Shown here piece by piece: positions 4,297-34,932 of a DNA stretch of 41,794 bases. Numbering within the stretch: position 1 is the first letter of the stretch; each line of letters starts with the position of its first letter. The notes under the pieces were generated by a model. It saw only the letters and a list, made by a program, of their open reading frames with translations, had not been told where the DNA came from and did no database searches. The stretch is from Gammaproteobacteria bacterium (GTDB lineage: Bacteria; Pseudomonadota; Gammaproteobacteria; Methylococcales; UBA2780): positions 1 to 41,794 of the forward strand of contig QNFJ01000001.1 in the NCBI GenBank assembly GCA_003646305.1. The letters run 5' to 3'. The position numbers and the translations under genes were made by a program.

Positions 4297-4884
4297 ATGC
4301 CAGAATCAGGAATTTACGCCATCGATGGGGTTGTCCCAGTTATTCATCCGTCCGCCTTTGTTGACGAAAATGCCACGATTATTGGTGATGTCATTATCGG
4401 ACCAGACTGCTATATCGGTCCTAATGCTTGTCTGAGGGGTGATATGGCCACCATTGAAGTCGGAGCGGGTTCTAATATTCAGGATAACTGCACACTGCAT
4501 TGTATGCCCGGTTTGCCGACAATTATTGGAGAGTGGGGGCACCTTGGTCATGGTGCGGTGGTTCATAGTGCTCGGCTAGCAAAGAATGTCCTGGTTGGTA
4601 TGAATGCTGTTGTGATGGATCAGTCTTTTATCGGTGAGAATAGCGTTGTTGCTGCAATGGCGTTTGTAAAAGTCGGAATGCAAGTGCCAGAAAATACGCT
4701 GGTTGCAGGAACACCTGCACGTATCATTCGGCAGTTGACGGAACAGGAAATTGAAGGAAAACGAGACGGGACACGCTGTTATCACCAGTTAGTGAGCCGT
4801 TGTAAAGACTCTTTAAAGCGGGTCACGCCGCGGACTGAAAAAGAGGTGGGTCGCCCAGAGTTAAAAGTTAAACCGTTAGGATGA
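4297..4884 (+). CDS. gamma-carbonic-anhydrase-like hexapeptide-repeat protein (PaaY/CaiE/YrdA family)
   Basis: 195 aa. Left-handed beta-helix hexapeptide repeats are visible (IIGDVIIGPDCYIGPNACL...). The His triad spacing is retained (H68 in TLH, H85 and H90 in LGHGAVVH). Confidence 0.8.
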   Translation: MPESGIYAIDGVVPVIHPSAFVDENATIIGDVIIGPDCYIGPNACLRGDMATIEVGAGSNIQDNCTLHCMPGLPTIIGEWGHLGHGAVVHSARLAKNVLVGMNAVVMDQSFIGENSVVAAMAFVKVGMQVPENTLVAGTPARIIRQLTEQEIEGKRDGTRCYHQLVSRCKDSLKRVTPRTEKEVGRPELKVKPLG

Positions 4885-4942: not shown

Positions 4943-6139
4943 ATGGATTTAAATTACACTCCAGAAGAAAAAGCATTTCAATTAGAAGTGCGTAGCTTCT
5001 TAAAGGAAAGCTACCCGAAAGAGCTCCAGGATAAAGTTTCAAAAGGGATTGCGCTCAAAAAAGAGGATTATGTCCGTTGGCAGAAAATTCTTGCTAAGCA
5101 GGGTTGGGTTGCACCTGGCTGGCCGGAAAAATTTGGTGGCCCCGGCTGGAGTCCTGTTCAGAAATATATCTTTGATGAGGAGTGTGGTACTGCGAACTGC
5201 TTGAGGACGGTTGCTTTTGGTCTGGTGATGTTGGCGCCTGTCTTAATGGAATTTGGAACAGACGAGCAGCGTGAAAAGTATTTATCAGACATCTATAACA
5301 GTGATGTTTGGTGGTGCCAGGGTTATTCGGAACCCAACTCAGGTTCAGATTTGGCCTCTTTGCAGACGCGGGCAGAAAAGCAGGGTGACCACTATATCGT
5401 CAATGGCTCTAAAACATGGACAACCCATGGTCATTACGCCGATAAGATGTTTGCACTGGTTCGAACCAGCAAAGAAGATCGGAAACAAAAAGGGATCAGC
5501 TTCCTAATGCTCGATATGAAGGCGCCCGGTGTTACAGTCGACCCGATTATTACGGTTGACGGAATGCATGTGGTCAATCAGGTCTTTCTTGATAATGTAA
5601 AAGTACCGGTTGAAAACCTGGTCGGGGTAGAAGGGGAAGGCTGGACGATTGCAAAGTATTTGTTACAGCACGAACGAACTTATATTGCCCAGGTGCCACG
5701 TTCTAAAAAGCAGATTGAGCGCTTGAAGGTATTGGCAGGAAAAGAGCTGCACAATGGTAAATCGTTATTGGAAGATGATCGCTTTCGCGCAAAAATTGCT
5801 GAAATTGAGATTGAGTTATTGGCATTAGAAATGACCAGTTTGCGGATTCTATCCAAAATGTCAGCAGGGCAGCCTCCAGGGTCTGCCTCATCGCTACTTA
5901 AAGTCAAAGGAACAGAAGTACAGCAGGCGATTACGGCTCTACTAATGGAAGCGACAGGTTACTACGGTTTTCCTTACTTCAAAGAGGTCCTTAAAGAGGG
6001 CTGGAATGAAGAGGCAGTAGGGCCTGAAGAGGCAACCTTCCTCGCCCCACATTACTTCGACTGGCGTAAATCTTCTATTTACGGTGGCTCGAATGAAATT
6101 CAGAAAAATATTATGGCGAAAGCTGTATTGGGACTTTAA
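4943..6139 (+). CDS. acyl-CoA dehydrogenase family protein (putative catalytic subunit of a heteromeric pair)
   Basis: 398 aa with YSEPNSGSDLAS and the C-terminal SSIYGGSNEIQKNIMAKAVLGL. The MCAD-type Glu position is Gly, but an IVD/LCAD-type helix-G Glu is present (LLQHERT). Confidence 0.9.
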   Translation: MDLNYTPEEKAFQLEVRSFLKESYPKELQDKVSKGIALKKEDYVRWQKILAKQGWVAPGWPEKFGGPGWSPVQKYIFDEECGTANCLRTVAFGLVMLAPVLMEFGTDEQREKYLSDIYNSDVWWCQGYSEPNSGSDLASLQTRAEKQGDHYIVNGSKTWTTHGHYADKMFALVRTSKEDRKQKGISFLMLDMKAPGVTVDPIITVDGMHVVNQVFLDNVKVPVENLVGVEGEGWTIAKYLLQHERTYIAQVPRSKKQIERLKVLAGKELHNGKSLLEDDRFRAKIAEIEIELLALEMTSLRILSKMSAGQPPGSASSLLKVKGTEVQQAITALLMEATGYYGFPYFKEVLKEGWNEEAVGPEEATFLAPHYFDWRKSSIYGGSNEIQKNIMAKAVLGL

Positions 6140-6151
6140 GGGAGAACGGGA

Positions 6152-7282
6152 ATGAATCTTGAATTCACAGAAGAACAGGTTATGTTGCAGGATGCATTAA
6201 ACAAATACCTTGAAAAAGAATACAGCTTTGAGCAGCGGCAGAAGTTGAGCCGCAATGGCGTCGGTTATAGTGAAGAGAACTGGCAAAATTTTGCCGATAT
6301 GGGATTGTTGGGTGTTCCTTTTGATGAGCAATATGGCGGTTTTGGGTTTGGTGCAACAGGCCTGATCGTCGTCATGGAAGCGATTGGTAAAGGGCTGGTT
6401 GTTGAACCTTACCTTGCCTCTGTTGTTCTCGGTGGTCAGCTTATTCAACAAGCCGGTAGTGAGGTGCAAAAAGAGGCGTTGATTCCGCAATTGATTGCAG
6501 GTGAGTTGAAACTGGCTTTTGCTTATGTCGAGAGAAATTCTCGTTTTAACCTTGCGGATGTGGCCTTTAAAGCAGAAAAAGAGGGAGATGGTTTCCGTTT
6601 AAGCGGCAAAAAATCGGTGGTTTTCAATGCAGAGACAGCCGATAAAATTATCGTTTCAGCTCGAACAGCAGGAGATCAGACCAGTAAAGAAGGGATTTCT
6701 CTTTTTATTGTTGATAAAGGGGCAGTCGGTCTCTCTAGCAGAGACTATGAAACGGTTGATGGTTTGCGCGCATCTGAACTCGATTTTGATGGCGTGATTG
6801 TAGGGGCTGATGCATTAATTGGCTCATTAAATGAGGCCTATCCTGTTATTGAAAGTGTGATTGATTTTGCATCAGCCGCTATTTGTGCGGAGAGCGTTGG
6901 GGTGATCACGCAGCTTCGTGAGAAAACAGTTGAGTACCTGAAAACCAGAAAGCAGTTTGGTCAGCCTATTGGTGCTTTTCAGGTCCTACAGCACCGCACG
7001 GTTGATATGTTTATGGTAGAAGAGCAGATGCGTTCTTTAGCCTATTTAGCCGCAATTCGTGTGACTGATGGAACAGCGGAAGAGCGCCTCAAGAGTGTTT
7101 CTGCAGCCAAGGTCTATCTGGGTGATGCGCGCCCAATCGTCGGTGAACAATCTGCACAGTTACATGGTGGTATTGGGGTTACGGATGAACTGGATGTGGC
7201 CCATTACGTTAAGCGTTTAACGATGCTGAATGTGCTCTTTGGTGATCGCGATCACCATATGCAGCGCTTTTGCCAAAGCTGA
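6152..7282 (+). CDS. acyl-CoA dehydrogenase-like protein lacking a recognisable catalytic base (putative non-catalytic partner subunit)
   Basis: 376 aa, starting 12 nt after the preceding ACAD. The ACAD fold is recognisable throughout. The helix-G position reads VIDFASAAI (no Glu) and the C-terminal position reads LFGDRDHH (no Glu). Confidence 0.85.
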   Translation: MNLEFTEEQVMLQDALNKYLEKEYSFEQRQKLSRNGVGYSEENWQNFADMGLLGVPFDEQYGGFGFGATGLIVVMEAIGKGLVVEPYLASVVLGGQLIQQAGSEVQKEALIPQLIAGELKLAFAYVERNSRFNLADVAFKAEKEGDGFRLSGKKSVVFNAETADKIIVSARTAGDQTSKEGISLFIVDKGAVGLSSRDYETVDGLRASELDFDGVIVGADALIGSLNEAYPVIESVIDFASAAICAESVGVITQLREKTVEYLKTRKQFGQPIGAFQVLQHRTVDMFMVEEQMRSLAYLAAIRVTDGTAEERLKSVSAAKVYLGDARPIVGEQSAQLHGGIGVTDELDVAHYVKRLTMLNVLFGDRDHHMQRFCQS

Positions 7283-7294: not shown

Positions 7295-8317
7295 ATGTCT
7301 AAAACGGAAAAATTAAGTTATCCGTTTGCGGAAAAGCCATCATTTGGTGGTTTGCTCGAAGTTTCGGAAGGACTGTTCTGGCTGCGGGTACCTATTCCGT
7401 TTGCGCTTGACCACATCAATCTCTGGTTATTGCGTGATGGTGATGGTTGGACAATCATTGATACGGGCTTTTTTAGCGCAGAAGTCGCGACAATCTGGGA
7501 ACGGCTGCTAGAAGAATTTTGTGCAGGCGCACCGATTAAAAAAATTGTGGTGACGCACTTTCATCCCGACCACGTTGGTATGGCGAGCTGGTTGGTTGAG
7601 CGAACCGGAGCAGAGCTGTGGATGAGCGAGCGTGAATTCCTGACCGTTCATCGTGTATGTCAGCCCTATTCTGAACGTGAGATTACGGTGAGGGCTATCT
7701 TCTTCGAGCGTTTTGGGCTAAATGAAAAGCAGCTTGCCAGTGTCGTTAACGCGAGAAGTAGTGATGTTGAGGGGCTTCCGGAAGCCCCGGTCTCATACCG
7801 CCGATTGGTCGGTGGACAAACGTTATCGATAAATGGTGAGAACTGGAACTTGTTCAGTTTCGCAGGCCATAGTCCTGAGCATATTTGTCTGCACAATGCG
7901 GAGCGTAATTTGCTGATCTCGGGGGACCAGGTGTTGCCATCAATCTCTCCGAATATTAGTGTCACCTTTTACGAGCCACAGGCAAATCCGTTAGCGGAGT
8001 ATCTGAACAGTTTATCGAGGCTATCCGAGCTGAATGAAGAGACACTGGTGCTACCGTCACATGGTTCTGTATTCCAGGGTCTTCATCGGAGGATTGATCA
8101 GCTTGAGGCCGGACATCAAAAGCAGCTGGACAGGCTTTTGGAGTTTTGTAGGCAACCGCGTGATGGTAAAGAGGCGCTGGAAGCGATGTTTGGTAACCGC
8201 TTAAGTGCATTCAATTTGAGTCTGGGGGTTGGTGAGGCCCAGGCACACCTGAATTATTTAGTGGCCAAGCGTGAGCTAAAACAAAATGATGAGTTTATTC
8301 CACATTACCAGCGATAG
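7295..8317 (+). CDS. MBL-fold metallo-hydrolase
   Basis: 340 aa with the HxHxDH motif in VVTHFHPDHVG and downstream GHSPEH and PSHG. Confidence 0.85.
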   Translation: MSKTEKLSYPFAEKPSFGGLLEVSEGLFWLRVPIPFALDHINLWLLRDGDGWTIIDTGFFSAEVATIWERLLEEFCAGAPIKKIVVTHFHPDHVGMASWLVERTGAELWMSEREFLTVHRVCQPYSEREITVRAIFFERFGLNEKQLASVVNARSSDVEGLPEAPVSYRRLVGGQTLSINGENWNLFSFAGHSPEHICLHNAERNLLISGDQVLPSISPNISVTFYEPQANPLAEYLNSLSRLSELNEETLVLPSHGSVFQGLHRRIDQLEAGHQKQLDRLLEFCRQPRDGKEALEAMFGNRLSAFNLSLGVGEAQAHLNYLVAKRELKQNDEFIPHYQR

Positions 8318-8383: not shown

Positions 8384-8806
8384 ATGAACGATACAGTGAC
8401 ATACAAAAGCCTGATTCTAGGTGATGATTTTCTTGATCCACCGCCCTCTTTTGAGGTGACCAATGAGGTGGTTGATAAATATATTCGTGCAACAAACGAT
8501 GCAACCCAGGAGCTTGGAGAGCCTAATAGTAGAGGCCAGCGAATTGCACCTCCTATGCTGGCTGCGGTTTATGTGATTGACGCGCTGCGTACCAAGGTCG
8601 GGCCGCCGGGTGGCGTTCATGCCAAGCAGCAATTTAAATTTCATCGCCCCGCATGCGTGGGTGAAACACTTTATACCTCGGCAAAGATTGTCAAACTCTA
8701 TCAGAAAAAAGAGCGGAATTACGTTGAGATGACGACTGAAACGCTTAACCAGGATGACGACTTAGTGACGACAGGGCTGATCACTCGGATATGGGGGAAA
8801 GAATAA
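8384..8806 (+). CDS. hotdog-fold protein, MaoC N-terminal-half type (no hydratase-2 catalytic motif)
   Basis: 140 aa. Its size and pattern fit a hotdog fold. It has no [ST]GDxNPxH motif. Its stop TAA (8804-8806) overlaps the next ATG (TAATG). Confidence 0.72.
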   Translation: MNDTVTYKSLILGDDFLDPPPSFEVTNEVVDKYIRATNDATQELGEPNSRGQRIAPPMLAAVYVIDALRTKVGPPGGVHAKQQFKFHRPACVGETLYTSAKIVKLYQKKERNYVEMTTETLNQDDDLVTTGLITRIWGKE

Positions 8807-9237
8807 TGACGATTAGCGAGGAATTACAAAGCTATAAAAACCTTTCTGTAGGAGATCGCCTGCCTGAAATTAAGGTACTGGTTGACCAGAATATGGTCGA
8901 TGCTTACGCGGATGCATCGGGTGATACCAATCCATTACACATTGATCCTGAATTTGCCAAAACAACCTTCTTCGGGCGAACGATTGCGCACGGACTTTTA
9001 ACTCTGGCATTTGTATCGCAAGTGCTATCTGAATGGAACTGGCAGGGATGGGCTTATGGTGGCGAATTAAGCGTTGCTTTTTTAGGTCCTGTATACCCTG
9101 GAGATGAGGTTTCAGTCAGTGGAGAAATAGATTTAATTGAGCAGCGCGAAGAGGGTGTTTTTGCGCGCTGTAATTTGGCTTGTTATTGCGGGGAGAGAGC
9201 CGTTGTTAAGGGAACAGCAACCTGCAAAGTTGGTTAA
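8806..9237 (+). CDS. MaoC-family (R)-specific enoyl-CoA hydratase subunit
   Basis: It carries the canonical hydratase-2 motif YADASGDTNPLHIDPEFA. I prefer the ATG at 8806 (MTISEE..., TAATG coupling, GGGGAAAG upstream) over the track start at 8791. Confidence 0.85.
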   Translation: MTISEELQSYKNLSVGDRLPEIKVLVDQNMVDAYADASGDTNPLHIDPEFAKTTFFGRTIAHGLLTLAFVSQVLSEWNWQGWAYGGELSVAFLGPVYPGDEVSVSGEIDLIEQREEGVFARCNLACYCGERAVVKGTATCKVG

Positions 9238-9248: not shown

Positions 9249-10652
9249 ATGAGTTACCGTAAAGATGGGGCTTTAGAGAAAAAAGGCGACAGCTATTACC
9301 ACCAGATTGAGTGTGCTTCAGAAGATGAAATCATCAAGATTCAGGAAGAGAAATTACAGGCGCAGATGGCCTATTTGTCTAAAAACTCAAAGCTCTATCA
9401 ACAGAAGTTTGAGAAGGCAGGTATTCGTTTTGATGAGATCAAAACACTAAAGGATTTAGCCAAAGTCCCTTTTACCGTTAAACAGGATCTTAGGGACAGT
9501 CTTCAAGCTGCTCCACCATTTGGTCTTCACCAAACAGCACCGCTTTCTGAGATTGTACAGATGCAGGCCTCGTCAGGAACCACCGGTAGTCCCGCTTATG
9601 TCGCTCTGACTGAAAACGATATTGAGATGTGGAATGAACTGAGTGCGCGAGGATTTTATGCCTGCGGTGTTAACCCAGGCGACTTTGTTTTACATGGCTT
9701 TTCCATGAGTAAAGGCTTTGTTGGCGGTATCCCTTGTATGCAGGCGATTCAATATATGGGGGCAATTGATGTTCCTGTGGGCGCTGATGGTGGGGTTGAT
9801 CGGCTGTTACGTGCCTGTGCGGATATTAAACCGCGAGTTATTATTGGCGCGCCTAATTTTCTACTGCATATTGCCTCGATGGCGCCCGATATTCTTGGTA
9901 AACGTGCCGATGAACTGGGCGTAGAAAGATTAGTTGTTGGTGGTGAACCAGGTGGTGGTATTCCTGCGATTCGCGAATCACTGGAAGAGAAATGGGGCGC
10001 GAAAGTCTGTGAAATGATGGGAGGGACTGATCTCGGCGTCATCTATTGGGCAGAATGTGATGAGCAAGATGGCATGCATATGATCTGTCAGGATCACATT
10101 ATTGTCGAATTGATTGACCCGGAAACAGAGCAGGTGATTCCTTTTGAGAAAGGCGTTACTGGCGAGCTGATTTATACCGCGATTGGCCGCGAGGCTTCAC
10201 CCGTTGTTCGTTTTAAAAGTGGCGATCACATTGTGGTGACCGATACGGCGTGTAGTTGTGGCCGGACAGGCCCTAAAATACGCTGCTTTGGGCGAACAGA
10301 TGATATGTTGATTGTCCGCGGCATCAATGTCTTTCCATCGGCAATCCAGGATCTTATTTTACAGCTACAACCTGACACCAACGGCGTGATGCGTGTCTGG
10401 GCCGATTTTGAAGGCCATACCACGCAAGCAAATCTGAAAGTATTGGTTGAGCGCGGCATTGATCGGTCGAAAGAGCAGGATCAGGAGCTTATCAGCCATG
10501 TGGAGCAAACCATTCGCAACGCCTTATCGTTCAAGGCGAAAGTGATTGTTGTCGATGCAAATAGTTTTGAAAAACCGGGTGTTGCAAAAGTAGCGCTAAC
10601 GCTTCGTGAGCAACCCGGCTTTCTCACTCTTGATGATGAGGGTGCTCAGTAA
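9249..10652 (+). CDS. PaaK-like adenylate-forming enzyme (phenylacetate-CoA ligase / coenzyme F390 synthetase family)
   Basis: 467 aa with the P-loop-like QASSGTTGSPAYV. The overall pattern is PaaK-family rather than FadD-type. Confidence 0.8.
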   Translation: MSYRKDGALEKKGDSYYHQIECASEDEIIKIQEEKLQAQMAYLSKNSKLYQQKFEKAGIRFDEIKTLKDLAKVPFTVKQDLRDSLQAAPPFGLHQTAPLSEIVQMQASSGTTGSPAYVALTENDIEMWNELSARGFYACGVNPGDFVLHGFSMSKGFVGGIPCMQAIQYMGAIDVPVGADGGVDRLLRACADIKPRVIIGAPNFLLHIASMAPDILGKRADELGVERLVVGGEPGGGIPAIRESLEEKWGAKVCEMMGGTDLGVIYWAECDEQDGMHMICQDHIIVELIDPETEQVIPFEKGVTGELIYTAIGREASPVVRFKSGDHIVVTDTACSCGRTGPKIRCFGRTDDMLIVRGINVFPSAIQDLILQLQPDTNGVMRVWADFEGHTTQANLKVLVERGIDRSKEQDQELISHVEQTIRNALSFKAKVIVVDANSFEKPGVAKVALTLREQPGFLTLDDEGAQ

Positions 10653-12262
10653 TGTCAATTATAAAGTCGACTGTACATAATCAGTCTGAAGAGTTTATCG
10701 CTAATCGAAATCGTTATCTTGAACGGATCGAAGAACTACAGGAACACCGGCAGCGCGCCCATTTAGGTGGGCCAGAGAAAGCACGGAAACGTCATATAGA
10801 ACACCGCGAACAGATATTGCCGCGTGATCGTATTCGGTTGCTGATTGACCCGGGTTCTCCTTTTTTTGAACTGGGTGAACTTGCGGGTGATGGTCTGCCC
10901 GAAGGGACTCAGGTCGGTGCAAGTGTTATTACCGGCGTCGGCCTCATTAACAGCCGTCAATGTATGATTATTGCCAATGATGCCACCGTAAAAGGCGGTA
11001 CTTATTTTCCAATGACCTGTAAAAAACATGTTCGGGCGCAGACGTTTGCGATACAGCATCGGCTACCCTGCATCACTTTAGTTCAAAGTGGTGGTGCATT
11101 TTTGCCAGAGCAGGAAGGTATTTTTCCTGATGAGGGTATGTTCGGAAGCATCTTTGTTAACCAGATCGAAATGTCCGCTCAGGGTATTCCACAGATTTCC
11201 GTGGTAATGGGCTCATCAACAGCAGGTGGTGCCTATATACCTGCGTTGTGTGATGAGATTGTCATCATTAAAGGGAAAGGTTTTATGTATCTGGGTGGCC
11301 CCCAACTGGTTGAAGCGGCGACAGGTGAGAAGGTCGAACATGAAGCGCTAGGCGGTGCAGAAATGCATTGTCGGGATAGTGGTGTTACCGATCATCTAGC
11401 AGAAGATGACGCACATGGTTTGAGTATGGTACGCGATATTGTGCGAAATCTGGGTAACCTACCCGAACAACGCTGGGATGTGGCTAAATCGGTTCCACCA
11501 CTATATCCGGTGGAAGAGATTTACGGCATTGTTAATCAGGATACGAAAATTCCGACCGCTAACCGACAAATCTTGGCTCGCTTAATTGATGGTAGTGACT
11601 TTGATGAATTCAAGGCCAATTATGGCGATACGCTGATGTGTGGCTTTGCCAAAATACATGGTTTTGAAATCGGTATTTTAGCTAATGATGGCGTGATGTT
11701 TAGTGAGTCTGCTAAAAAAGGGGCGCACTTTATTAATCTTTGCTGCCAGCGCGATATTCCACTGTTATTTGTGGCCGATGTTCCCGGTTTTATGGTGGGT
11801 GAACATGCCGAGCGGGGTGGTATCGCAAAAGATGGAGCAAAGTTCATCACCGCCATGTGTTCTGCAAAAGTACCTAAATATACCTTAATCACGGGAGGCT
11901 CTTACGGTGCCGGTTATTTAGCCATGTGTGGTCGCCCGTTTAAACCGAATGCCATGTTAGCCTGGCCATCGGGTCGTGCTGGCATTATGGGGCCGGAGCA
12001 GGTTGCCAATACGCTTGCAACGGTACGCGAAGATATCCTCAAACGAGAAGGAAAAAGTTGGACGGAAGAAGAGCGGGAAGAATTTAAAGCGCCACATCGG
12101 AAACGATTTGAGGATTCTGAAGGTGCTTATAACTTTGCCTCCAAGTTGTGGTATGACGCGGTGATTGATCCAACAGAAACACGCGAAGTGCTGGCACTTT
12201 TACTTGATCTGGCAGGACGTTCGCCCAAAGTGGAAACTAAATTTGGTGTATTCAGACAATGA
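10652..12262 (+). CDS. acyl-CoA carboxylase carboxyltransferase (beta) subunit, methylcrotonyl-/geranyl-CoA carboxylase type
   Basis: 536 aa. The layout is typical of MccB/AtuC (RIEELQEHRQRAHLGGPEKARKRH..., ANDATVKGGTYFPMT, GSSTAGGAYIPA, GSYGAGYLAMCG). Its start overlaps the previous stop (TAATG). Confidence 0.9.
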   Translation: MSIIKSTVHNQSEEFIANRNRYLERIEELQEHRQRAHLGGPEKARKRHIEHREQILPRDRIRLLIDPGSPFFELGELAGDGLPEGTQVGASVITGVGLINSRQCMIIANDATVKGGTYFPMTCKKHVRAQTFAIQHRLPCITLVQSGGAFLPEQEGIFPDEGMFGSIFVNQIEMSAQGIPQISVVMGSSTAGGAYIPALCDEIVIIKGKGFMYLGGPQLVEAATGEKVEHEALGGAEMHCRDSGVTDHLAEDDAHGLSMVRDIVRNLGNLPEQRWDVAKSVPPLYPVEEIYGIVNQDTKIPTANRQILARLIDGSDFDEFKANYGDTLMCGFAKIHGFEIGILANDGVMFSESAKKGAHFINLCCQRDIPLLFVADVPGFMVGEHAERGGIAKDGAKFITAMCSAKVPKYTLITGGSYGAGYLAMCGRPFKPNAMLAWPSGRAGIMGPEQVANTLATVREDILKREGKSWTEEEREEFKAPHRKRFEDSEGAYNFASKLWYDAVIDPTETREVLALLLDLAGRSPKVETKFGVFRQ

Positions 12263-14247
12263 TTAAACGAATTCTTATCGCAAACCGCGGCGAAATCGCC
12301 TGTCGAATTACACGAACCTGCCGTAAATTGGGGATTGATGCCGTTGGTGTCTATTCAACGGCAGATAGCCAGGGCCGCCATGTTAGAGAGATTGGTCATT
12401 CTGTTGCTATCGGTGGTGCCAGTGCAGCAGATAGTTACCTCAATATAGATAAAGTCATTGCAGCAGCTAAAGCGACTAACTGTGATGCCATTCATCCAGG
12501 TTATGGTTTTTTATCAGAAAACCCCGACTTTGCCGAGGCGGTTGAAGGTGCTGGGCTTATTTTTATTGGTCCCAGAGCGGATAGCTTACGCCGTTTTGGT
12601 GATAAGTCTGCCGCTAAAAAAGAGGCTATTAATGCCGATGTGCCGGTTATCCCGGGCAGTGATGGAAAGCTTTCCGATCCAGTGGAGATTGCCAAGATTG
12701 TTAAAAGCATGGAGCTTCCAGTGATGCTGAAAGCCGCCGCGGGTGGTGGTGGGAAGGGGATGCGGATTATCAGTGATCTGCCAAGTCTGGAATCCGATAT
12801 CAGCAGTGCCATGAGCGAAGCATTGCGTTCTTTTTCCGATGAGGCGCTACTGATTGAAAAATGTATCTACAATGCGCGTCATGTAGAGGTGCAGATTGCA
12901 GGTGATGGTGAAGGCAATGTCGTTCACCTTTTTGAACGAGAATGCTCTTTACAGCGTCGCCACCAAAAAGTTGTTGAAGAGGCGCCTGCTATTTTCCTCC
13001 GGCTAGAGCAGCGTGAAAAATTGTTGGAAGCTGCTTGCCGACTTGGTAAGCAGATTAATTTTAGAGGACTGGGCACTGTTGAGTTTCTTGTGCTGGGTGA
13101 CGATTACTATTTTCTGGAAGTAAACCCGCGGCTTCAGGTGGAGCACCCCGTTACTGAGAGCATAACTGGTCTGGATCTGGTCGAACTACAGATTCGCATT
13201 GCACAGGGAAGCGGTTTTGGCTTTCGCCAAGAAGAGGTCAGTGCTTCAGGTCACGCCATTGAGGTGCGCCTTTATGCCGAATCACCAGAGCAGAACTTTA
13301 TGCCAGCGACGGGAACAATTGAGCTTGTGAAATTCCCAGACGAGCACCTGCGCGTTGAATCCGGGGTCGATAGCGGTGACGAGATAAGTGCCTATTACGA
13401 CCCAATGGTTGCCAAACTGATTGCTACTGGAGAGAATCGAAATCAGGCGCTGGAACGTCTTCAAAAAGGAGTTGATGAAACCATTCTTTTTGGGGTTGAT
13501 AATAACCGTAATTTTCTTCAGCAACTGCTTCGCCATAACGAGGTTGTCGAGGACAAGATTGACACCGGCACGCTGGATCGCTGGTTAGCCGATTATGCCG
13601 ATGGAAAGGGTTCTCTTGAAGCAGAAAAACAGGCAGCTATTGCGGCTATTCTATGGCTAAACCAGCACCGAAAGAGTGGCTCATTAAATCCATGGGAAGG
13701 CGCCGATATCTTTAGTTATTGGGCATTAAGATCACCGAATGACAAACCTATTTATACCTTTAGCCTGATCGAAAATGAAGATGAGTGGAAGATCGCTTTT
13801 CTGAATATCGATGAGCAAGGGCTTGTTGCGCTGATGGTAAATGACCAGCGGATTGAATTGCGGCTGAAAGCTCAGGGCGATGACAGCTGGATGGCTGAAT
13901 TTCCGGAGGCACATATCCCTGTGACGGCTATTGCCACAACTGAACAGCTCTATATCCACGCACTTTCACAACAAAGTAGCTACCGAGTGGAGCAGGTTGT
14001 CCGCGATAAACAAGGGGAAGCGGCCGGTGCGAATAGTGTCATGGCACCGATGATGGGTGAGATTATCAAGGTGATTATTAAGGAAGGGGATAGCGTAGAA
14101 GAGGGTGATCTTCTGATTGTAATGGAGTCAATGAAAATGCAATTACAAATTGAAGCCGTTAAAGCGGGTACGGTAACTAACGTTCTTTGCAAGGCAGGCG
14201 ACAATGTTGCACGCGGTGAAGTTGTGGTAGAAGTCGATGCAGAATAA
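12259..14247 (+). CDS. acyl-CoA carboxylase biotin carboxylase + BCCP (alpha) subunit
   Basis: 662 aa. It has an ATP-grasp biotin carboxylase domain (ILIANRGEIACRI, KAAAGGGGKGMR, EVNPRLQVEHPVTE). The C-terminal biotinyl domain has the motif VMESMKMQ, with the Lys codon at 14134-14136. The start overlaps the beta subunit stop (ATGA). Confidence 0.92.
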   Translation: MIKRILIANRGEIACRITRTCRKLGIDAVGVYSTADSQGRHVREIGHSVAIGGASAADSYLNIDKVIAAAKATNCDAIHPGYGFLSENPDFAEAVEGAGLIFIGPRADSLRRFGDKSAAKKEAINADVPVIPGSDGKLSDPVEIAKIVKSMELPVMLKAAAGGGGKGMRIISDLPSLESDISSAMSEALRSFSDEALLIEKCIYNARHVEVQIAGDGEGNVVHLFERECSLQRRHQKVVEEAPAIFLRLEQREKLLEAACRLGKQINFRGLGTVEFLVLGDDYYFLEVNPRLQVEHPVTESITGLDLVELQIRIAQGSGFGFRQEEVSASGHAIEVRLYAESPEQNFMPATGTIELVKFPDEHLRVESGVDSGDEISAYYDPMVAKLIATGENRNQALERLQKGVDETILFGVDNNRNFLQQLLRHNEVVEDKIDTGTLDRWLADYADGKGSLEAEKQAAIAAILWLNQHRKSGSLNPWEGADIFSYWALRSPNDKPIYTFSLIENEDEWKIAFLNIDEQGLVALMVNDQRIELRLKAQGDDSWMAEFPEAHIPVTAIATTEQLYIHALSQQSSYRVEQVVRDKQGEAAGANSVMAPMMGEIIKVIIKEGDSVEEGDLLIVMESMKMQLQIEAVKAGTVTNVLCKAGDNVARGEVVVEVDAE

Positions 14248-15418
14248 ACGCTCAATTCGAGGCAAAGTTGCGATTGTTGGTGTTGGGCAATCACCTTCAG
14301 GACGGGTGCCCGGCAGAAGCCCGTTAGACTTGACTGCCGATGCAACGCTTAAAGCACTGGCCGACGCCGGTATGGATAAAAGTGAAATTGACGGGGTCTT
14401 GACGGGTAATGCCTTCGCCTCATCCTTCCACCGTTTTAGTGTTGCATTGAGTGAATACCTGAACATTCAACCTTCATTCTCTAATACCTTGCAGGTCTCG
14501 GGAGCCACTGCGGGAGCCGCCGTTAATATTGCCGCAGCAGCGATTAACGGTGGGCTTGCAGATACGGTGCTGGTCGCCTGTGGTGATAGCCTGTTAACTG
14601 GGATGACACCAGATATGGCGATTAGAGCGATGACCGAAAGCCGTGATCAACAATATGAAATGCCTTTTGGAATTCCTGTGGCCAATACGTTTGCGATGAC
14701 GGCTCAGCGGCATATGAAAGAGTACGGCACCACCTCTGAACAGTTAGCACAAGTGGCCGTTACCTTTCGTGAGCATGCTCGACGTACACCGGGTGCGCAA
14801 AAGACGGACTCGATTACGGTTGAGGATGTGTTAAATTCCAAAATGGTGACGACGCCGTATCACAAACTGGACTGTTCTCTTATTTCTGATGGTGCTGTTG
14901 CGCTAATTTTGACCTCGGCGGAAAAGGCGCATGAATATACTCAGGAGCCAATTTATATTCTGGGTGGTGGCGAGTATTACAGCCATGAGCATATTTTTTT
15001 GATGCCAGAATTGACCCAGACGGGTGCGGTTCAGGCAGCTAAAAAGGCCTATGAGATGGCGGGTGTGACGGCAAAAGATATTGATGTTGCGGGAATTTAT
15101 GATTGTTTTACCGGAACGGTTTTGATGATGCTCGAAGATCTCGGGTTTTGTAAAAAAGGCGAGTCAGGCCCATTCGTTGAGGCGGGAGAAATCACCTACG
15201 GAGGGGCTATTCCGACTAATACTCACGGTGGAATGCTCTCTTATGCGCATCCGGGTATTCCGGCGGCATGGTTTCATTTTGCGGAGGTGGTTAGACAGCT
15301 TCGCAATAGCTGCGGTGAAAGACAGGTTGCCAGTGCAGAGCTTGGACTAGTCCATACCTTAGGTGCTGGTTTTTCAACCCAGGCAACGACGATATTAGGA
15401 ACGGGGAGCACACTGTGA
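14237..15418 (+). CDS. thiolase-fold (SCP-x/Ltp-type) protein apparently lacking the nucleophilic Cys; candidate aldolase subunit
   Basis: 393 aa with an SCP-x-type thiolase pattern (VAIVGVGQS..., NTHGGMLSYAHPG). Gly occupies the nucleophile position (GATAGAAVNIAAAAINGG versus CATGSTALFMARQLIQGG). Confidence 0.85.
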   Translation: MQNKRSIRGKVAIVGVGQSPSGRVPGRSPLDLTADATLKALADAGMDKSEIDGVLTGNAFASSFHRFSVALSEYLNIQPSFSNTLQVSGATAGAAVNIAAAAINGGLADTVLVACGDSLLTGMTPDMAIRAMTESRDQQYEMPFGIPVANTFAMTAQRHMKEYGTTSEQLAQVAVTFREHARRTPGAQKTDSITVEDVLNSKMVTTPYHKLDCSLISDGAVALILTSAEKAHEYTQEPIYILGGGEYYSHEHIFLMPELTQTGAVQAAKKAYEMAGVTAKDIDVAGIYDCFTGTVLMMLEDLGFCKKGESGPFVEAGEITYGGAIPTNTHGGMLSYAHPGIPAAWFHFAEVVRQLRNSCGERQVASAELGLVHTLGAGFSTQATTILGTGSTL

Positions 15419-15855
15419 GTGAGCAAAAGGTTGGAGTAGAAGAGGCGCTAAAAAAACCATTGCCCACGCCTGATGGTGATAGCCAGCCAATGTGGGATGG
15501 TTTTAAAGAAGGTAAATTATTGTTGCAGCATTGCGGTGATTGCGGACATGTTCAATATTACCAACAAGGTATTTGTCGCAACTGCCAATCGCCTAACCTG
15601 CAGCATCAGAAAGCAAGTGGGCGTGGAGTGATTCATTCATATAGTGTCGTTCATCGTGCGCCCGGCCCTGCGTTTAGAGATGATGTTCCTTATGCAGTGT
15701 TATTAGTCGAACTGGAAGAGGGGCCCAGAATGATTAGCCGTTTGGTTGGGCAGGATTTTGACTCACTGGATTTTGATCTGCCGGTCAGGCTGGAAACCAT
15801 TAAGGTGAGTGATGAACTTTTTCTCCCTTATTTCGCATTGAACGAGTGCAATTAA
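15415..15855 (+). CDS. DUF35 OB-fold / zinc-ribbon protein (thiolase-fold partner)
   Basis: 146 aa with a GTG start overlapping the previous stop (GTGA). It has a C-x2-C-x10-C-x2-C ribbon (CGDCGHVQYYQQGICRNC) followed by an OB-fold-like segment. Confidence 0.85.
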   Translation: MSEQKVGVEEALKKPLPTPDGDSQPMWDGFKEGKLLLQHCGDCGHVQYYQQGICRNCQSPNLQHQKASGRGVIHSYSVVHRAPGPAFRDDVPYAVLLVELEEGPRMISRLVGQDFDSLDFDLPVRLETIKVSDELFLPYFALNECN

Positions 15856-15961: not shown

Positions 15962-17011
15962 ATGAATCTTATGTGGAAAATAGTGATCAGCTTTACCCTT
16001 GTGCTTTTGGCCGGCTGTCAATCTGAGGAGGCTCAACAAGATAGCGCACCTCCCTGGGTGAAAACCTTTGTTATTCAGCCACGAAGTGGCGCAGAACGCG
16101 TTTTATCGGGCACGGTACGGGCGCGTCATGAAATGCCGATTGCATTTCGAATTAATGGCCGAATTGAACAGCGTGCAGTTGATGCGGGGCAGCGGGTTAA
16201 AAGCGGCACCTTATTATTCGCACTGGATCCCAGTGATTTAGAGAAAGAGCTGGATGCACGCAAAGCTGAAGTTTCAGCAGCAAAAACGGCAATATCTGTC
16301 GCTGAGGCAGATGTTGTACGAGGTCACGATCTGCTAAAGAAAGAGTTTATCAGTCAGCAATCTCTTGATCGTTTCAATCTAGTTAAGCGTGAAGCGCAAG
16401 AACGGATGAATGCGGCATTGGCTCGGCTTGAGCAGGCTAAAAATGCACTGACTTACGCAAGGTTAACTGCAGAATCTGATGGGTTGCTAACAGAAGTTAC
16501 AGGTGAACAGGGAGAGGTGGTTGCAGCGGGCCAGAGTATCGCTATTTTGGCAAAAGAGGGTGAACTGGAAGTTGAACTTTTTTTTCCGGAAGAGATGAAA
16601 CCGCCAGCCAGCGGCCTGGTTATGCCAAGGAATGGGAAACCGATACCTTTAAAGTTAAGAGAGGTCGCGGGAGCTGCTGATGCGGTGAGTCATACTTGGC
16701 GAGCCCGTTATAGCGTTCGTGCCAGTGGCGATAAGCTGGCACTTGGAAATATTGTCCGCGCTATCTTCAAGCGGGTGGAAAAATCACCTGATAGCCTTGA
16801 AGTGCCTCTGGCAGCGCTGGATGAGCGAGGAGGAACGCCTCGTATCTGGGTCATTAGAGATGAACACGCGCAGCCCCTATCGATTGAATTGATTTCGCTT
16901 GGAACAGAGACGGCCCTGATCAAGACCAAATTGTCAGCGGGTAGCCGCGTCATTGCGCTTGGAACGCACCTGTTGAAGCCCGGAATGGCTGTTCAGCCTT
17001 TACCCCAATGA
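15962..17011 (+). CDS. RND efflux periplasmic adaptor (membrane fusion protein), lipoprotein
   Basis: 349 aa with the lipobox LLAGC near the N-terminus. It has a coiled-coil hairpin region (EKELDARKAEVSAAKTAISVAEAD...) and the HlyD/MFP pattern. Confidence 0.85.
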   Translation: MNLMWKIVISFTLVLLAGCQSEEAQQDSAPPWVKTFVIQPRSGAERVLSGTVRARHEMPIAFRINGRIEQRAVDAGQRVKSGTLLFALDPSDLEKELDARKAEVSAAKTAISVAEADVVRGHDLLKKEFISQQSLDRFNLVKREAQERMNAALARLEQAKNALTYARLTAESDGLLTEVTGEQGEVVAAGQSIAILAKEGELEVELFFPEEMKPPASGLVMPRNGKPIPLKLREVAGAADAVSHTWRARYSVRASGDKLALGNIVRAIFKRVEKSPDSLEVPLAALDERGGTPRIWVIRDEHAQPLSIELISLGTETALIKTKLSAGSRVIALGTHLLKPGMAVQPLPQ

Positions 17012-20000
17012 GTTTCCCTAATCTGTCTGCTCTGGCGGTAAAAGAGCGTTCAGTTACGCTGTTTTTCCTGATTCTATCGATACTTGCCGGTATCTACTCC
17101 TTTAGTTTTCTAGGACGAGCCGAAGACCCTTCTTTTACGGTCAGAATGATGGTGGTTTCCGTTATCTGGCCTGGGGCGGATGCGAACGACCTGCAAGATC
17201 AGGTGGTTGACCGGTTAGAAAAACGGATTCAGGAAGTTAAGTACCTCGATAATATTGTCACAACTGTTCGTCCGGGGCGCGCTGATTTACTCGTTGAGTT
17301 TAAGGATTACTCTCCTGCCGAGATTGTTCCTGACCTTTACTATGAGGTCAGGAAACGCATGCTGGATGAAAAAGAGACGTTACCGGATGGTGTAATCGGG
17401 CCGCTGGTGAATGATGATTTCTCGGATGTTTATTTCAGCCTGATTTCCCTGGCCGCACCGGGTCTGCCGCTGCGGCAGTTGACGCGTGAAGTAGAACAGA
17501 TCCGCGATCGTGTACAGCGGATTGAAGGGGTGCATAAGGCGCTGTTGTTTGGTGAGAGACCAGAAAGGGTTTTTGTCGAGTTTGATAATGCCAAGCTGGT
17601 TAATTTAGGGATTTCTACGCAGGCGGTTTTTGAGGCGATCAAGAACCAGAACCGTCTTTTACCCGCTGGTCTGCTGGAAACTGACGGGCCGCGCATCTAT
17701 TTGCGGCTTGATGCTGATCTGAGTAATCCAGAAGAGCTGGCAAAGATGCCGATCCGGATTGGTAAAAAGGTCATTAATCTATCCGATATTGCAACGATCC
17801 GCCGCGGTTACGAGGAGCCACCCACTTACATGGTGCGAGCAGGAGGGGAGGATACACTGCTTCTGGGCATTATTATGAAGGAGGGAGAAAATGGCTTGGA
17901 CCTCGGGGAACGGATGGCTGAATTCCTCGATAAAGAGCGCTCTCGACTGCCGTTAGGAATGGAGTTGACCCAGCTAACGAATCAGGCTGAAGCGATTTCT
18001 GGTGCGGTGAATCTGTTCCAGATCAAGTTTCTCGTTGCCGTTATAGTCGTTGTACTGGTCAGTATTTTTGCCATCGGTCTGCGGGCGGGGTTGGTCATTG
18101 GTATTGCTGTTCCGCTCACTCTGGGGCTGACCTTTTTGGTGATGCATAGCTCGGGGATGACGTTGAATAGAGTCAGTTTGGGGGCTTTGATTCTTGCGCT
18201 GGGGCTTCTGGTCGATGATGCCATCATTGCGATTGAAATGATGATGGTGAAGATGGAGGAGGGCTGGGGTCGAGTACGAGCCGCATCACATGCCTGGAAT
18301 GTAACGGCAGCACCGATGCTCTTTGGTACCTTGGTAACCGTTGCCGGGTTTGTGCCGATCGGTTTTGCAAAATCTTCTACGGGCGAATATGCAGGGGGTA
18401 TTTTCTGGGTATTGGCCATTGCTTTACTGATTTCCTGGTTGGTTGCTGTAACCTTCACGCCTTATCTTGGTGTGAGAATGTTGAAGGTGATGGCAACGAG
18501 CCATCACACGACAGAGTCGCTCTATCAAACAACGGGTTTTTGCCGTTTGCGTCGCATTGTTCGCTGGTGCGTTGATAATCGAAAAACAGTTGTAACTAGC
18601 ACCGTTTTGCTGCTGATAATTTCCATTGTCGGCATGGTGGGTGTGGTGCAAAAGCAGTTCTTTCCCAGTTCAGATCGTCCCGAAGTGTTGATTAGTGTTT
18701 TTCATCCGCAGGGCAGTGCGATTAAGGCAACCGATAAAACGGTTCAGAAACTTGAAAAAGTACTGAAAGAAATGGGTGAAGTGAAAACACTTTCTGCCTA
18801 TATTGGTGCTGGGCCTCCGCGCTTTTTTATCTCCGAAAACCCAGAGCTTCCCAACCCGGCTTTTGCCAAATTGATTGTTGTCACGCACGATGAAGAGGCG
18901 CGAGACACAGTGATGGCCGAAATTACCAGAAGAGTTAATGAAGGGGAGTTTCCGGAGGCGCGAGTGAGGGTTGTTCGCCTATTATATGGGCCACCGGTTG
19001 TCTGGCCGGTTAGCTTTCGAGTGGTCGGTGCTGACCCTCTGCAATTGCGGCATATTGGTCATAAACTTAGAGAGATCATGGCGGCTAATCCTCATACGCA
19101 TGATGCTCACCTGGAGTGGGATGAGCGAGTGCCGGTATTACACCTGGTAATGGAGCCAGACCGTCTTCGGTTGATGGGTTTGACGCCGAGTGATGTGGCC
19201 CAGCAATTACAGTTTGAGCTGAATGGTGTGCCGGTTACGCAGTTACGAGAGAACATTCGTAGTGTGGAATTGCGAGCAAGGGGTAATGCCGCTTCATTCG
19301 TTGGTTATCAAGACCTGGAGATTCGTACTCGTGATGGGCGCAAAGTTCCACTATCGCAGTTAGGGCGGTTAGAGGTTCAATACGAAGAACCGGTGATCAA
19401 ACGTTATAACCGGGAACCTTTCCTTGCGGTAGAAGCCGATATCAGGAATGCTCAGGCGAATGACGTGACTGCTGCGATATGGAAAGCTTCAGAAACGTTT
19501 CGTAGCGAACTCCCGGAAGGTTATCGAATTGATATTGGTGGTGCGGTTGAGCAGTCGGCTAAAGCGGATGCTTCTATTCAGAAACTGCAACCGTTAATGA
19601 TCGCGTTGATGCTGATCTTTATCATGTTGCAGATGCGCTCATTTACTGGAACGTTTATTGTGCTAGCCACCGCGCCACTCGGCGTGATCGGCGCAACATT
19701 AGCATTACTGCTATTTAATCAGGCTTTTGGGTTCGTGGCGCTACTCGGATTGATTGGACTTGCTGGGATTTTGATGCGCAATACGCTGATATTGACCCAG
19801 CAAGTGACCGATAATCTTGAAGAGGGGATGGATGCAGTCGAGGCCGTTGTAGAAGCTGCTGTTCGTCGGGCACGCCCAGTGATGCTGACCGCAGTTGCAG
19901 CGATGCTGGCATTTATACCGTTAACAATGGACAGCTTTTGGGGCCCACTTGCTTATGTGCTGATTGGTGGTGTTGCGGTTGGCACGGTGATTACGCTGCT

Positions 20001-31739: not shown

Positions 31740-32086
31740 TTAGAAACTCCGTGTGAATTGAGAGCGCAACTAAAGGCCTGGTTAGCCCAGTCGATTAATT
31801 CACTGTCATTTTCCAGCAGTTCATCAGGAGACTGGAAGTAGTTAAGGCAGATGGTTTTCCCTTTTTTTGAGTAAGAAAAAGGAGGGAGGTTATTTGCCTG
31901 AAAAACTGCAGCGCTCTTTTTGTCTGCTTTCAGGTAAAGAACGTCATCGGCAACCAGTGCAAACATCAACCCTTCAATAAAAAGCCCATAACAGCCGAAC
32001 ATTTTTTTTGCGATCACAGGCCCCATGGGTTGTAGCCGGTCAATGAGATAGCGGGTGAACTCATCAGTTTGATGGGTCTTGACCAT
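31736..32086 (-). CDS. TfoX N-terminal-domain protein (stand-alone)
   Basis: 116 aa with KKMFGCYGLFIEGLMFALVADDVLYLKAD, which matches my recollection of the TfoX_N pattern. Its stop overlaps the CoA-transferase start (ATGA type, 4 nt). Confidence 0.65.
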   Translation of the reverse strand: MVKTHQTDEFTRYLIDRLQPMGPVIAKKMFGCYGLFIEGLMFALVADDVLYLKADKKSAAVFQANNLPPFSYSKKGKTICLNYFQSPDELLENDSELIDWANQAFSCALNSHGVSK

Positions 32087-34928: not shown

Positions 34929-34932
34929 ATTC

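Follow-up and report, generated by a model that had tools for sequence, protein, structure and literature searches.

The stretch of DNA analysed here, referred to as the window, comprises positions 1 to 41,794 of contig QNFJ01000001.1 of the gammaproteobacterial assembly GCA_003646305.1. Its host is an uncultured, oil-associated marine gammaproteobacterium related to Cycloclasticus. According to the list of open reading frames (ORFs), a long plus-strand gene array spans positions 1486 to 24066. Its first 14 genes, from an AliB-like acyl-CoA dehydrogenase (ACAD) gene starting at 1486 through a stand-alone DUF35 gene that ends at 15855, form the operon considered here. The last five of these encode a PaaK-family acid-CoA ligase, the beta and alpha subunits of a biotin-dependent carboxylase, a thiolase-fold protein and the DUF35 protein. 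The genes overlap by 1 nt (ligase/beta), 4 nt (beta/alpha), 11 nt (alpha/thiolase-fold) and 4 nt (thiolase-fold/DUF35), whereas most other junctions of the array are spacers of 11-133 nt. With four overlaps in a row, the five genes are translationally coupled. The 14-gene block is syntenic in six loci of Cycloclasticus metagenome-assembled genomes (MAGs; L003-L008, loci being cited by number) and in the metagenome contig L090, with amino-acid identities of 53-97%.

The carboxyltransferase beta subunit (536 aa; 10652-12262, plus strand) matches Pfam Carboxyl_trans with 434 bits. The alpha subunit (662 aa; 12259-14247, plus strand) has a biotin carboxylase-BT-BCCP architecture with Biotin_carb_N, CPSase_L_D2 (ATP-grasp), Biotin_carb_C and Biotin_lipoyl domains; its C-terminal region carries LIVMESMKMQLQ, and its biotin motif, with the MKM site, is VMESMKMQ. 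A preliminary description of this DNA had given the same subunit lengths and a biotinyl-lysine in ESMKMQ, and both were confirmed. Among solved structures, the beta subunit scored highest against Mycobacterium tuberculosis AccD1 (617 bits), Pseudomonas aeruginosa methylcrotonyl-CoA carboxylase (MCC, 596 bits) and human MCCB (589 bits). Geranyl-CoA carboxylase (GCC) followed as the ninth PDB match with 425 bits, and enzymes of the propionyl-CoA carboxylase (PCC) type reached about 250 bits or less. Residues 1-535 are collinear with P. aeruginosa MCC beta from the first residue of the latter, including the N-terminal extension of about 30 residues. The closest solved relative of the alpha subunit is P. 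aeruginosa MCC alpha. Judged by sequence, the carboxylase belongs to the gamma-carboxylating MCC/GCC lineage, as opposed to the PCC and acetyl-CoA carboxylase lineage.

In MCC, the pocket residue Phe191 is preceded by a 3-residue insertion, while GCC has Gly162 at this position and a 3-residue deletion (Jurado et al., 2015; PMC4673880). We read the pocket class of the window beta subunit from a HMMER alignment to MCCs combined with this rule; that Phe191 follows the human numbering was deduced from the alignment. Phe164 of the window protein (in …DEGMFGSIF…) stands, with no intervening gap, opposite Phe191 of human MCCB and the Phe of the P. aeruginosa sequence EHFGR, and there is no 3-residue deletion. 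By this alignment and the published rule, the GCC signature of Gly plus 3-residue deletion is absent from the window beta subunit, and its pocket is predicted to be small and of the MCC type. The earlier designation as an enzyme of MCC/geranyl-CoA type is too loose with respect to this pocket.

An ordinary 3-methylcrotonyl-CoA carboxylase of leucine/isovalerate degradation, lying among unrelated beta-oxidation genes, would agree with the Phe pocket and with the full-length similarity to solved MCCs. It would also agree with the public annotation, as an identical beta subunit is deposited under RLA24686.1 as 'MAG: methylcrotonoyl-CoA carboxylase [Gammaproteobacteria bacterium]'; the 90%-identity cluster of this entry includes Cycloclasticus sp. 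Phe_18. The Liu pathway comprises isovaleryl-CoA dehydrogenase (LiuA), MCC (LiuB/LiuD), a hydratase (LiuC) and HMG-CoA lyase (LiuE). The predicted scheme for the window resembles that of Pseudomonas and Shewanella, as both use an ACAD, an alpha/beta biotin enzyme that carboxylates the gamma carbon, a hydratase that yields a tertiary alcohol and, last, a C-C lyase, and the window beta subunit has the Phe and the 3-residue insertion that define MCC. However, this subunit is only about 51% identical to the canonical proteins (50-52% for Shewanella, Idiomarina and P. aeruginosa LiuB) and falls into a separate clade in a neighbour-joining tree. Its identities are 88-89% with Cycloclasticus MAG proteins and 64-69% with a broad alpha-, beta- and gammaproteobacterial set. 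Unlike canonical loci, the window contains no orthologues of LiuA, LiuC or LiuE, and its beta and alpha genes overlap directly, without an intervening hydratase gene. The ACADs and enoyl-CoA hydratases (ECHs) of the window, like the ACADs, hydratases and HMG-CoA lyases (HMGLs) of its carboxylase clade, are non-orthologous to LiuA, LiuC and LiuE of the Shewanella and Idiomarina liu clusters, with identities of 25-37%, which argues against the ordinary leucine pathway without identifying the substrate. In addition, the carboxylase genes overlap their neighbours in an operon that also encodes AliB-, BadI- and PimCD-like proteins. On context and clade, we rejected the leucine enzyme, which we regard as very unlikely.

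The Atu pathway, with geranyl-CoA carboxylase (AtuC/AtuF), the hydratase AtuE and LiuE or AtuA as lyase, offers another comparison. It is similar in that a larger beta-methyl-branched enoyl-CoA is carboxylated so that the blocking branch can be removed, and part of the literature ties atu operons to naphthenic acids. It differs in that the window beta subunit lacks the GCC signature (PMC4673880) and the window has no AtuA.

We scanned 36 ORFs of the window for a lyase, namely 34 long non-nested ORFs of at least 90 aa and two short ORFs near the right end. Pfam identified no HMGL-like domain (PF00682) in any of them, tblastn searches of the window with two HMGL proteins returned only noise (E >= 1.4), and AtuA was likewise absent from the scanned ORFs. 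Of 74 canonical liu loci, 66 have HMGL about 3 kb 3' of the beta gene. The claim that no member of the HMG-CoA-lyase family is recognisable in the window is thus correct, as is the statement that the carboxylase genes are followed, with overlapping stop and start codons, by the thiolase-fold and DUF35 genes.

The thiolase-fold protein (393 aa; 14237-15418, plus strand; Thiolase_C_1, 183 bits) is a predicted retro-aldolase of the type of Sal, the bile-acid aldolase of Comamonas. Its PDB matches are an uncharacterised 'thiolase' (4u4e, 288 bits), Sal (9myr, 217 bits), Ltp2 (6ok1, 179 bits) and archaeal thiolases. At the nucleophile position it has Gly89 (VSGATAG), which is invariant in 11 aligned family members; the aligned residue is also Gly in Sal and Ltp2 and is Cys in the archaeal thiolase 6esq. 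In the motif Y288-D289-C290-F291, at least 90% of members keep C290, and the other three residues do not vary. Retro-aldol cleavage by CtSal of Comamonas testosteroni depends on Y302 and C304, the counterparts of Y288 and C290, as base/acid dyad, and thiolysis is precluded in this enzyme by the Gly that takes the place of the nucleophile (PMC12329534). The signature of Ltp2 (YDHF, paired Tyr294/Tyr344) is absent, as the window protein reads YDCF and has a non-Tyr residue in the region of Ltp2 Tyr344. The preliminary description had called the protein Cys-less, which is right for the nucleophile but not for the whole protein, which keeps Cys290 and three further conserved cysteines.

A true thiolase, thiolytic on 3-oxoacyl-CoA, might be suspected from the matches to thiolase families in Pfam and NCBIfam and from the adjacent DUF35 gene, as in the benzoylsuccinyl-CoA thiolase BbsAB. 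However, the nucleophilic Cys that forms the acyl-enzyme of thiolases, BbsAB included, is replaced by Gly in 11 of 11 aligned members, and without it no acyl-enzyme intermediate can form. Moreover, the whole 41,794-nt window contains no short-chain dehydrogenase/reductase or 3-hydroxyacyl-CoA dehydrogenase that could supply a 3-oxo substrate, and no Cys-containing thiolase. We rejected a thiolytic enzyme because of Gly89 and consider this explanation barely credible. The enzyme set of the window suggests that hydration leads to aldol cleavage, with oxidation and thiolysis bypassed, or else that housekeeping enzymes are relied upon.

The stand-alone DUF35 protein (146 aa; 15415-15855, plus strand) has zf-ChsH2 and OB_ChsH2_C domains in Pfam, with a CxxC…CxxC zinc ribbon (Cys4) and an OB fold, and is the predicted partner of the aldolase. 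Its gene and the aldolase stop codon overlap, and in every locus that extends past the thiolase-fold orthologue (Thl), a DUF35 gene comes next. The pair is the predicted counterpart of Sal-Shy(DUF35) of C. testosteroni and of the actinobacterial Ltp2-ChsH2(DUF35), in which the zinc-ribbon/OB partner is obligatory and retro-aldol cleavage acts on a 3-hydroxyacyl-CoA. It shares with them the thiolase fold and the Gly at the nucleophile position, and with Sal the YDC[YF] dyad. Unlike these systems, to which it is only distantly related by phmmer (217 bits for Sal, 179 bits for Ltp2), it has a separate DUF35 protein, whereas the DUF35 of ChsH2 and Shy is fused to a MaoC hydratase, and its neighbours are genes for a biotin carboxylase and for alicyclic acids rather than for steroids. 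Across Proteobacteria, members of the aldolase family share 70-74% identity. When a plasmid collection was searched with the aldolase, only relatives at 41-44% identity and no orthologue were found.

Comparison with related loci bears on the role of the pair. In Sinimarinibacterium (L085), the gene order is ACAD-ECH-beta-alpha-HMGL, and the ACAD and ECH are 54% identical to the AliB-like ACAD and the first crotonase (ECH1) of the window. Sneathiella (L086) and a metagenome contig (L172) have the order ACAD-(ECH-ACAD)-PaaK-like ligase-beta-alpha-HMGL. The beta subunits of these three loci (65-67% identical to that of the window) are among the nearest carboxylases outside Cycloclasticus (64-67%). 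In all three, HMGL fills exactly the slot after alpha that the thiolase-fold and DUF35 genes fill in the window, and their ACAD, ECH and ligase genes, as far as present, are orthologous to those of the window (52-66%).

A second arrangement, ligase-Thl-DUF35-(ACAD)-beta-alpha(-ECH), is found in Variibacter gotjawalensis (L089), in a Rhodopseudomonas-like locus (L170) and in the metagenome loci L092, L096 and L109; none of these five cassettes contains HMGL. The Rhodopseudomonas-like locus can be compared directly with the HMGL-containing contig L172. The two share ACAD1 (72%), ACAD2 (63%), beta (64%), alpha (46%), an acetoacetyl-CoA-synthetase (AACS)-like ligase (42%) and a FadD-like ligase (55%), but differ in the hydratase (ECH3-like versus ECH1-like) and in the lyase (Thl/DUF35 versus HMGL). 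The same holds for L170 and L089 taken together against L172 and L086: the ACADs, the carboxylase and the AACS-like and FadD-like ligases are common to them, while lyase and hydratase are exchanged. Recurrence of this swap in unrelated bacteria suggests a second, unstudied way of carrying out the lyase step.

The association was also tested statistically. Carboxyltransferase and biotin carboxylase genes were present in the flanks of 8 of 18 aldolase-family loci of at least 8 kb, versus 1 of 31 control loci of distant thiolase-like genes at 41-48% identity (Fisher's exact p = 7e-4). HMGL was present in none of the 18 aldolase-family loci.

A motif of the beta subunit was observed to vary between the two types of loci. 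The sequence LVDSGGA reads LVQSGGA in the window protein (residue 145). In the loci compared (L083-L089, L170-L172), all beta subunits beside Thl/DUF35 or AtuA and those in loci with several beta genes have the Gln, while relatives followed by HMGL have the Asp. The top 120 beta homologues comprise 60 of the D type and about 52 of the Q type. We used the motif, whose correlation with the lyase partner was drawn from roughly 15 loci, to predict the partner of two unseen proteins. The prediction was borne out for both, as the Q-type protein P0066 lies in a Thl/DUF35 cassette and the D-type protein P0061 lies with HMGL. P0073 from Algiphilus, which has another Q-type variant, has neither partner; an AtuA gene lies downstream of a second carboxylase alpha subunit (L171).

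Some related loci have additional carboxylase genes. L083 (8344-13232) and L171 (10001-13226) encode two or three tandem beta paralogues with one shared alpha subunit, and the extra beta subunits have Gly or Ala at the position equivalent to Phe191 (…EGHGGSIMY…, …EGHAGSIMY…), which implies, as far as can be read from the residues, enlarged pockets and several substrates per holoenzyme system. In L093 and L098, a minus-strand carboxylase about 3 kb from the Thl-DUF35 orthologues is 39-41% identical to the window beta subunit and bears the published GCC signature, with Gly after a 3-residue deletion where selectivity is set.

The positional swap, the gene-content swap, the enrichment and the Sal-like active-site signature together support the replacement of HMGL by the aldolase. 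We estimate a probability of roughly 55% that the thiolase-fold/DUF35 pair is the functional lyase for the carboxylase product and hence a non-orthologous replacement of the HMG-CoA-lyase family. The retro-aldol cleavage proposed in the preliminary description has thereby gained comparative support from the slot swap, the cassettes and the Sal signature, but the pair is not tied exclusively to carboxylation products.

Several observations weigh against this interpretation. Orthologous Thl/DUF35 loci without a carboxylase within about 10 kb account for 10 of the 18, so the substrates of the aldolase family need not be carboxylation products. Such carboxylase-free loci contain a PaaK-like ligase and an ECH (L087), MaoC and ACAD genes (L088) or BadI-like genes (L094, L099 and L105). 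Hydratase and lyase types co-vary imperfectly, as Cycloclasticus joins an ECH1-like hydratase with Thl/DUF35. At the active site, Gln347 and Gln352 of Sal, which support the catalytic Cys304, are Met and His in the window protein (NTHGGMLSYAHPG versus NTHGGQLSFGQSG). Finally, the order ACAD pair, MaoC pair and, further on, aldolase mirrors the steroid igr operon (fadE28-fadE29-chsH1-chsH2-ltp2), and these genes could feed the aldolase without the carboxylase.

The last point leads to the chief rival explanation, namely that independent modules are interleaved in the operon. The aldolase would then serve the PimCD-like ACAD pair and the MaoC pair on a non-carboxylated 3-hydroxyacyl-CoA, tertiary or secondary, in an igr- or Sal-like manner, and an HMGL or AtuA encoded elsewhere would cleave the carboxylase product. 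Thl/DUF35 orthologues without carboxylase in L087, L088, L094, L099-L101 and L104-L106 are consistent with this explanation, in particular L088 with its adjacent MaoC and ACAD genes, and all characterised relatives (Ltp2, Sal) use non-carboxylated substrates. On the other hand, HMGL is exchanged at the exact position after alpha in otherwise orthologous operons, and the minimal cassettes of the Variibacter/Rhodopseudomonas type combine Thl/DUF35 with the carboxylase in the absence of a MaoC pair or two-subunit ACAD. The aldolase-carboxylase association is statistically enriched, and alpha, Thl and DUF35 are translationally coupled. We therefore consider interleaved modules unlikely, though a serious competitor.

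It is also conceivable that the pair is not an aldolase, but acts in decarboxylation or in scaffolding and channelling, with C-C cleavage by another enzyme such as the BadI-like hydrolase. The Trypanosoma protein TbSLP shares the YDCF motif and has weak malonyl-CoA decarboxylase activity only, with no known physiological function, and archaeal DUF35 is a scaffold between thiolase and HMG-CoA synthase. However, the window protein shares its Tyr/Cys dyad, and its Gly in place of the nucleophile, with CtSal, a proven retro-aldolase. It would be futile to spend ATP on a carboxylation and then reverse it, and the exchange with HMGL in the same slot speaks for a reaction of the same class. A role other than that of an aldolase thus appears improbable.

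The remaining genes of the operon indicate the kind of substrate. The first gene (1486-2640, plus strand) encodes an AliB-like ACAD of the cyclohexanecarboxyl-CoA dehydrogenase family (TIGR03207, 583 bits, cutoff 575), 54-57% identical to the ACADs heading the beta-alpha-HMGL operons of L085 and L172 and to ACAD1 of L170. ECH1 (2656-3447, plus strand; Pfam ECH_1) might hydrate the carboxylated enoyl-CoA; the ECHs of the ACAD-ECH-beta-alpha-HMGL operons of L085 and L172 match it with 52-54% identity. ECH1 is followed by a gene for a ring-opening crotonase, a BadI-like 2-ketocyclohexanecarboxyl-CoA hydrolase (3494-4276, plus strand; TIGR03210, 476 bits, cutoff 468). This is the best-conserved gene of the cluster, with 83-97% identity across Cycloclasticus MAGs, and BadI-like genes (68-74% identity) flank the Thl/DUF35 orthologues in L094, L099 and L105. 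A PaaY/CaiE-like hexapeptide-repeat protein (4297-4884, plus strand; TIGR02287, 252 bits, below cutoff) is encoded syntenically in 5 of the 7 related loci that reach this position (four of L003-L008, and L090).

The two-subunit ACAD (4943-7282, plus strand) consists of a PimC-like (4943-6139; TIGR03204, 455 bits) and a PimD-like subunit (6152-7282; TIGR03203, 413 bits); these are the best families for the pair, yet the scores lie under the equivalog cutoffs. Assignment to the FadE28/29 type of the igr operon was dropped, as NCBIfam puts the pair nearest to PimC/PimD. Next come a metallo-beta-lactamase-fold hydrolase (7295-8317, plus strand; Pfam Lactamase_B), the least conserved gene of the cluster (53-56% identity), and a pair of small MaoC/hot-dog hydratase subunits (8384-9237, plus strand; Pfam FAS1_DH_region and MaoC_dehydratas), whose genes (8384-8806 and 8791-9237) overlap by 16 nt and carry no fused DUF35. 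The PaaK-family ligase coupled to beta (9249-10652, plus strand), recognised through PDB matches, is closest to phenylacetate-CoA ligases (205 bits) and 2-hydroxyisobutyryl-CoA synthetase (178 bits). The ligases encoded immediately before beta in the HMGL operons L086 and L172 share 63-66% identity with it, and the one preceding Thl/DUF35 in L087 shares 72%. The AliB-, BadI- and PimCD-like content points to an operon that handles CoA esters of alicyclic acids, towards pimeloyl-type dicarboxyl-CoAs. AliB-, BadI- and PimC/PimD-like genes are also those of the Bad/Ali/Pim systems of Rhodopseudomonas palustris; in contrast to these, the window has no BadH-type 2-hydroxyacyl-CoA dehydrogenase and has the carboxylase and aldolase in addition, and the likeness is limited by AliB- and BadI-like scores barely above the cutoffs and PimCD-like scores under them.

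Further along the window, another crotonase (ECH3; 21108-21869, plus strand), a candidate alternative partner hydratase on the strength of its identity to cassette ECHs, is 55-58% identical to the ECHs that follow beta-alpha or Thl-DUF35 in L092, L100, L109 and L170. A CaiA-like ACAD (29316-30482, minus strand) is the closest relative in the window of ACAD2 in both cassette versions (36-37% identity to ACAD2 of L086, L089, L170 and L172). It is kept in Cycloclasticus loci at 86-89%, and a 69% identical orthologue adjoins Thl-DUF35 in L107. A family III CoA-transferase (32583-33776, minus strand; Pfam CoA_transf_3, 411 bits), also conserved in Cycloclasticus loci, is a candidate for re-activating the keto-acid product.

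The minus strand also encodes a second DUF35/thiolase-fold pair (33777-35331), with the DUF35 gene at 34933-35331 and the thiolase-fold gene in an ORF at 33777-35045, for which homologues suggest position 34928 as the likely start. With its motifs VGGSS and YDAF, this thiolase-fold copy lacks both catalytic cysteines, as does PDB 4u4e (YDSF). The second pair is 88-90% conserved in Cycloclasticus MAGs, beside a CoA-transferase, an FMN reductase and an ACAD. In total, the window encodes seven ACADs, three crotonases, three MaoC hydratases, three family III CoA-transferases and two aldolase-like pairs.

Other features concern the surroundings and possible regulation of the operon. A perfect 13-nt inverted repeat at 1345-1381 (AAATTTATTGTGA, an 11 nt spacer, TCACAATAAATTT) lies about 105 nt 5' of the first operon gene, between the operon and a divergently oriented, partial MmgE/PrpD-family gene at the left edge of the window; it is likely an operator site. 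A GAF-domain sigma-54 enhancer-binding protein is encoded at 37205-39130. A scan of the window for sigma-54 -24/-12 promoters gave 3 one-mismatch matches, versus 3.8 expected by chance, and none upstream of 1486; a sigma-54 promoter ahead of the operon was dropped, as the matches do not exceed chance. After the DUF35 gene, in the window genome only, there is an RND efflux pair (membrane-fusion protein and AcrB-type pump, 15962-20049). The six related Cycloclasticus loci lack it at this position, and an orthologous RND pump (68% identity) lies directly upstream of Thl-DUF35 in the metagenome locus L100. A TfoX_N-domain gene (31736-32086, minus strand) has an unusual place within the catabolic cluster, between two CoA-transferase genes. 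An old-yellow-enzyme gene at 39460-40579 is split into overlapping short ORFs, with only profile positions 87-237 recognisable (39724-40278), and is followed by about 1.2 kb without an ORF of more than 60 aa (40579-41794); an intact gene of this family is present at 35471-36613. The broken region may be a pseudogene or an assembly error.

If the thiolase-fold/DUF35 pair replaces HMGL, the operon would run a Liu/Atu-style bypass for a beta-blocked enoyl-CoA, either 3,3-disubstituted or ring-attached. The PaaK-like ligase would activate the acid, and an ACAD would introduce the alpha,beta double bond to give the 2-enoyl-CoA. The carboxylase would then add CO2 at the gamma carbon in an ATP- and biotin-dependent reaction, and a hydratase (ECH1, ECH3 or the MaoC pair) would form a tertiary 3-hydroxyacyl-CoA, which is not oxidisable. 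The complex of thiolase-fold protein and DUF35 would split the bond between C-alpha and C-beta by retro-aldol cleavage into acetyl-CoA and a beta-keto acid, with Tyr288 as the base that deprotonates the hydroxyl and Cys290 as the acid that protonates the acyl-CoA enolate. The keto acid might be re-activated by the family III CoA-transferase or, in the alphaproteobacterial cassettes, by the AACS-like ligase, and would be processed further by BadI-type hydrolysis and ring opening, the PimCD-type ACAD and ordinary beta-oxidation. As in Liu and Atu, carboxylation before cleavage would leave the keto product with a carboxyl handle and thus within CoA chemistry. The sequences show the gene identities, the active-site signatures, the synteny and the exchange of HMGL for thiolase-fold/DUF35 between related operons. 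In this scheme, we infer the action of the aldolase on the hydrated carboxylation product, the choice of hydratase, the order of steps and the substrate.

Possible substrates are of the cyclohexylacetyl-CoA or 2-methylcyclohexanecarboxyl-CoA types, which would lead to 2-oxocyclohexanecarboxyl-CoA and pimeloyl-CoA. Speculatively, cyclohexylacetyl-CoA would have cyclohexylideneacetyl-CoA, a ring analogue of 3-methylcrotonyl-CoA, as its enoyl form. Gamma-carboxylation would yield 2-carboxycyclohexylideneacetyl-CoA, and hydration the tertiary alcohol. Sal-type cleavage of this alcohol would release acetyl-CoA and 2-oxocyclohexanecarboxylate, the CoA ester of which is the BadI substrate. A route via 2-methylcyclohexanecarboxyl-CoA would be equally possible, and any particular substrate is doubtful at best.

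Similar intermediates occur in the anaerobic cleavage of ring II of naphthalene, which involves the ACAD ThnO, the hydratase ThnL, the AtuA-like lyase ThnQS and the thiolase ThnV (PMC12016498). In this pathway, 2-carboxycyclohexylideneacetyl-CoA is hydrated to the tertiary alcohol, which the non-HMGL lyase ThnQS cleaves, towards pimeloyl-CoA (PMC12016498). These are the intermediates to be expected here if the operon carboxylated cyclohexylideneacetyl-CoA. The Thn pathway differs in that the carboxyl group comes from ring I, the lyase is AtuA-like rather than of the thiolase fold, and the hosts are sulfate reducers.

In its widest form, our proposal would be a widespread third gamma-carboxylation pathway beside Liu and Atu, in which the mutually unrelated HMGL, AtuA-like enzymes and Sal-like aldolase/DUF35 are interchangeable, with a Cycloclasticus version that, using BadI- and PimCD-like enzymes, degrades beta-blocked alicyclic (naphthenic-type) acids to pimeloyl-CoA without an oxygenase. 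This wider proposal is speculative, and we hold it only tentatively. Its components are each of a known kind; what is new is that they occur together and that HMGL, AtuA-like and thiolase-fold lyases seem to substitute for one another behind a single carboxylase clade. Literature searches found no paper that links DUF35/thiolase-fold aldolases with MCC/GCC-type carboxylases, and none that describes the association in Cycloclasticus.

Tertiary and quaternary beta-carbons are a classic cause of resistance to beta-oxidation in naphthenic acids, alkyl-cycloalkane metabolites and terpenoid acids, and the known solutions are the carboxylases of the Liu and Atu type with HMG-CoA lyase, alpha-oxidation and steroid-type aldolases. 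If the replacement proposed here is true, aldolases of the Sal/Ltp2 type would no longer be confined to steroids, and HMG-CoA lyase would have undergone a clean non-orthologous displacement, with three alternative lyases in related operons. The cassette genes are publicly annotated as 'methylcrotonoyl-CoA carboxylase' and 'thiolase/acetyl-CoA acetyltransferase', and these routine labels would need correcting. Cultured carriers of the simple cassette exist, which makes the idea directly testable. The pathway would then be an unannotated one, shared by oil-degrading marine bacteria (Cycloclasticus) and common alphaproteobacteria of soils (Variibacter- and Rhodopseudomonas-like).

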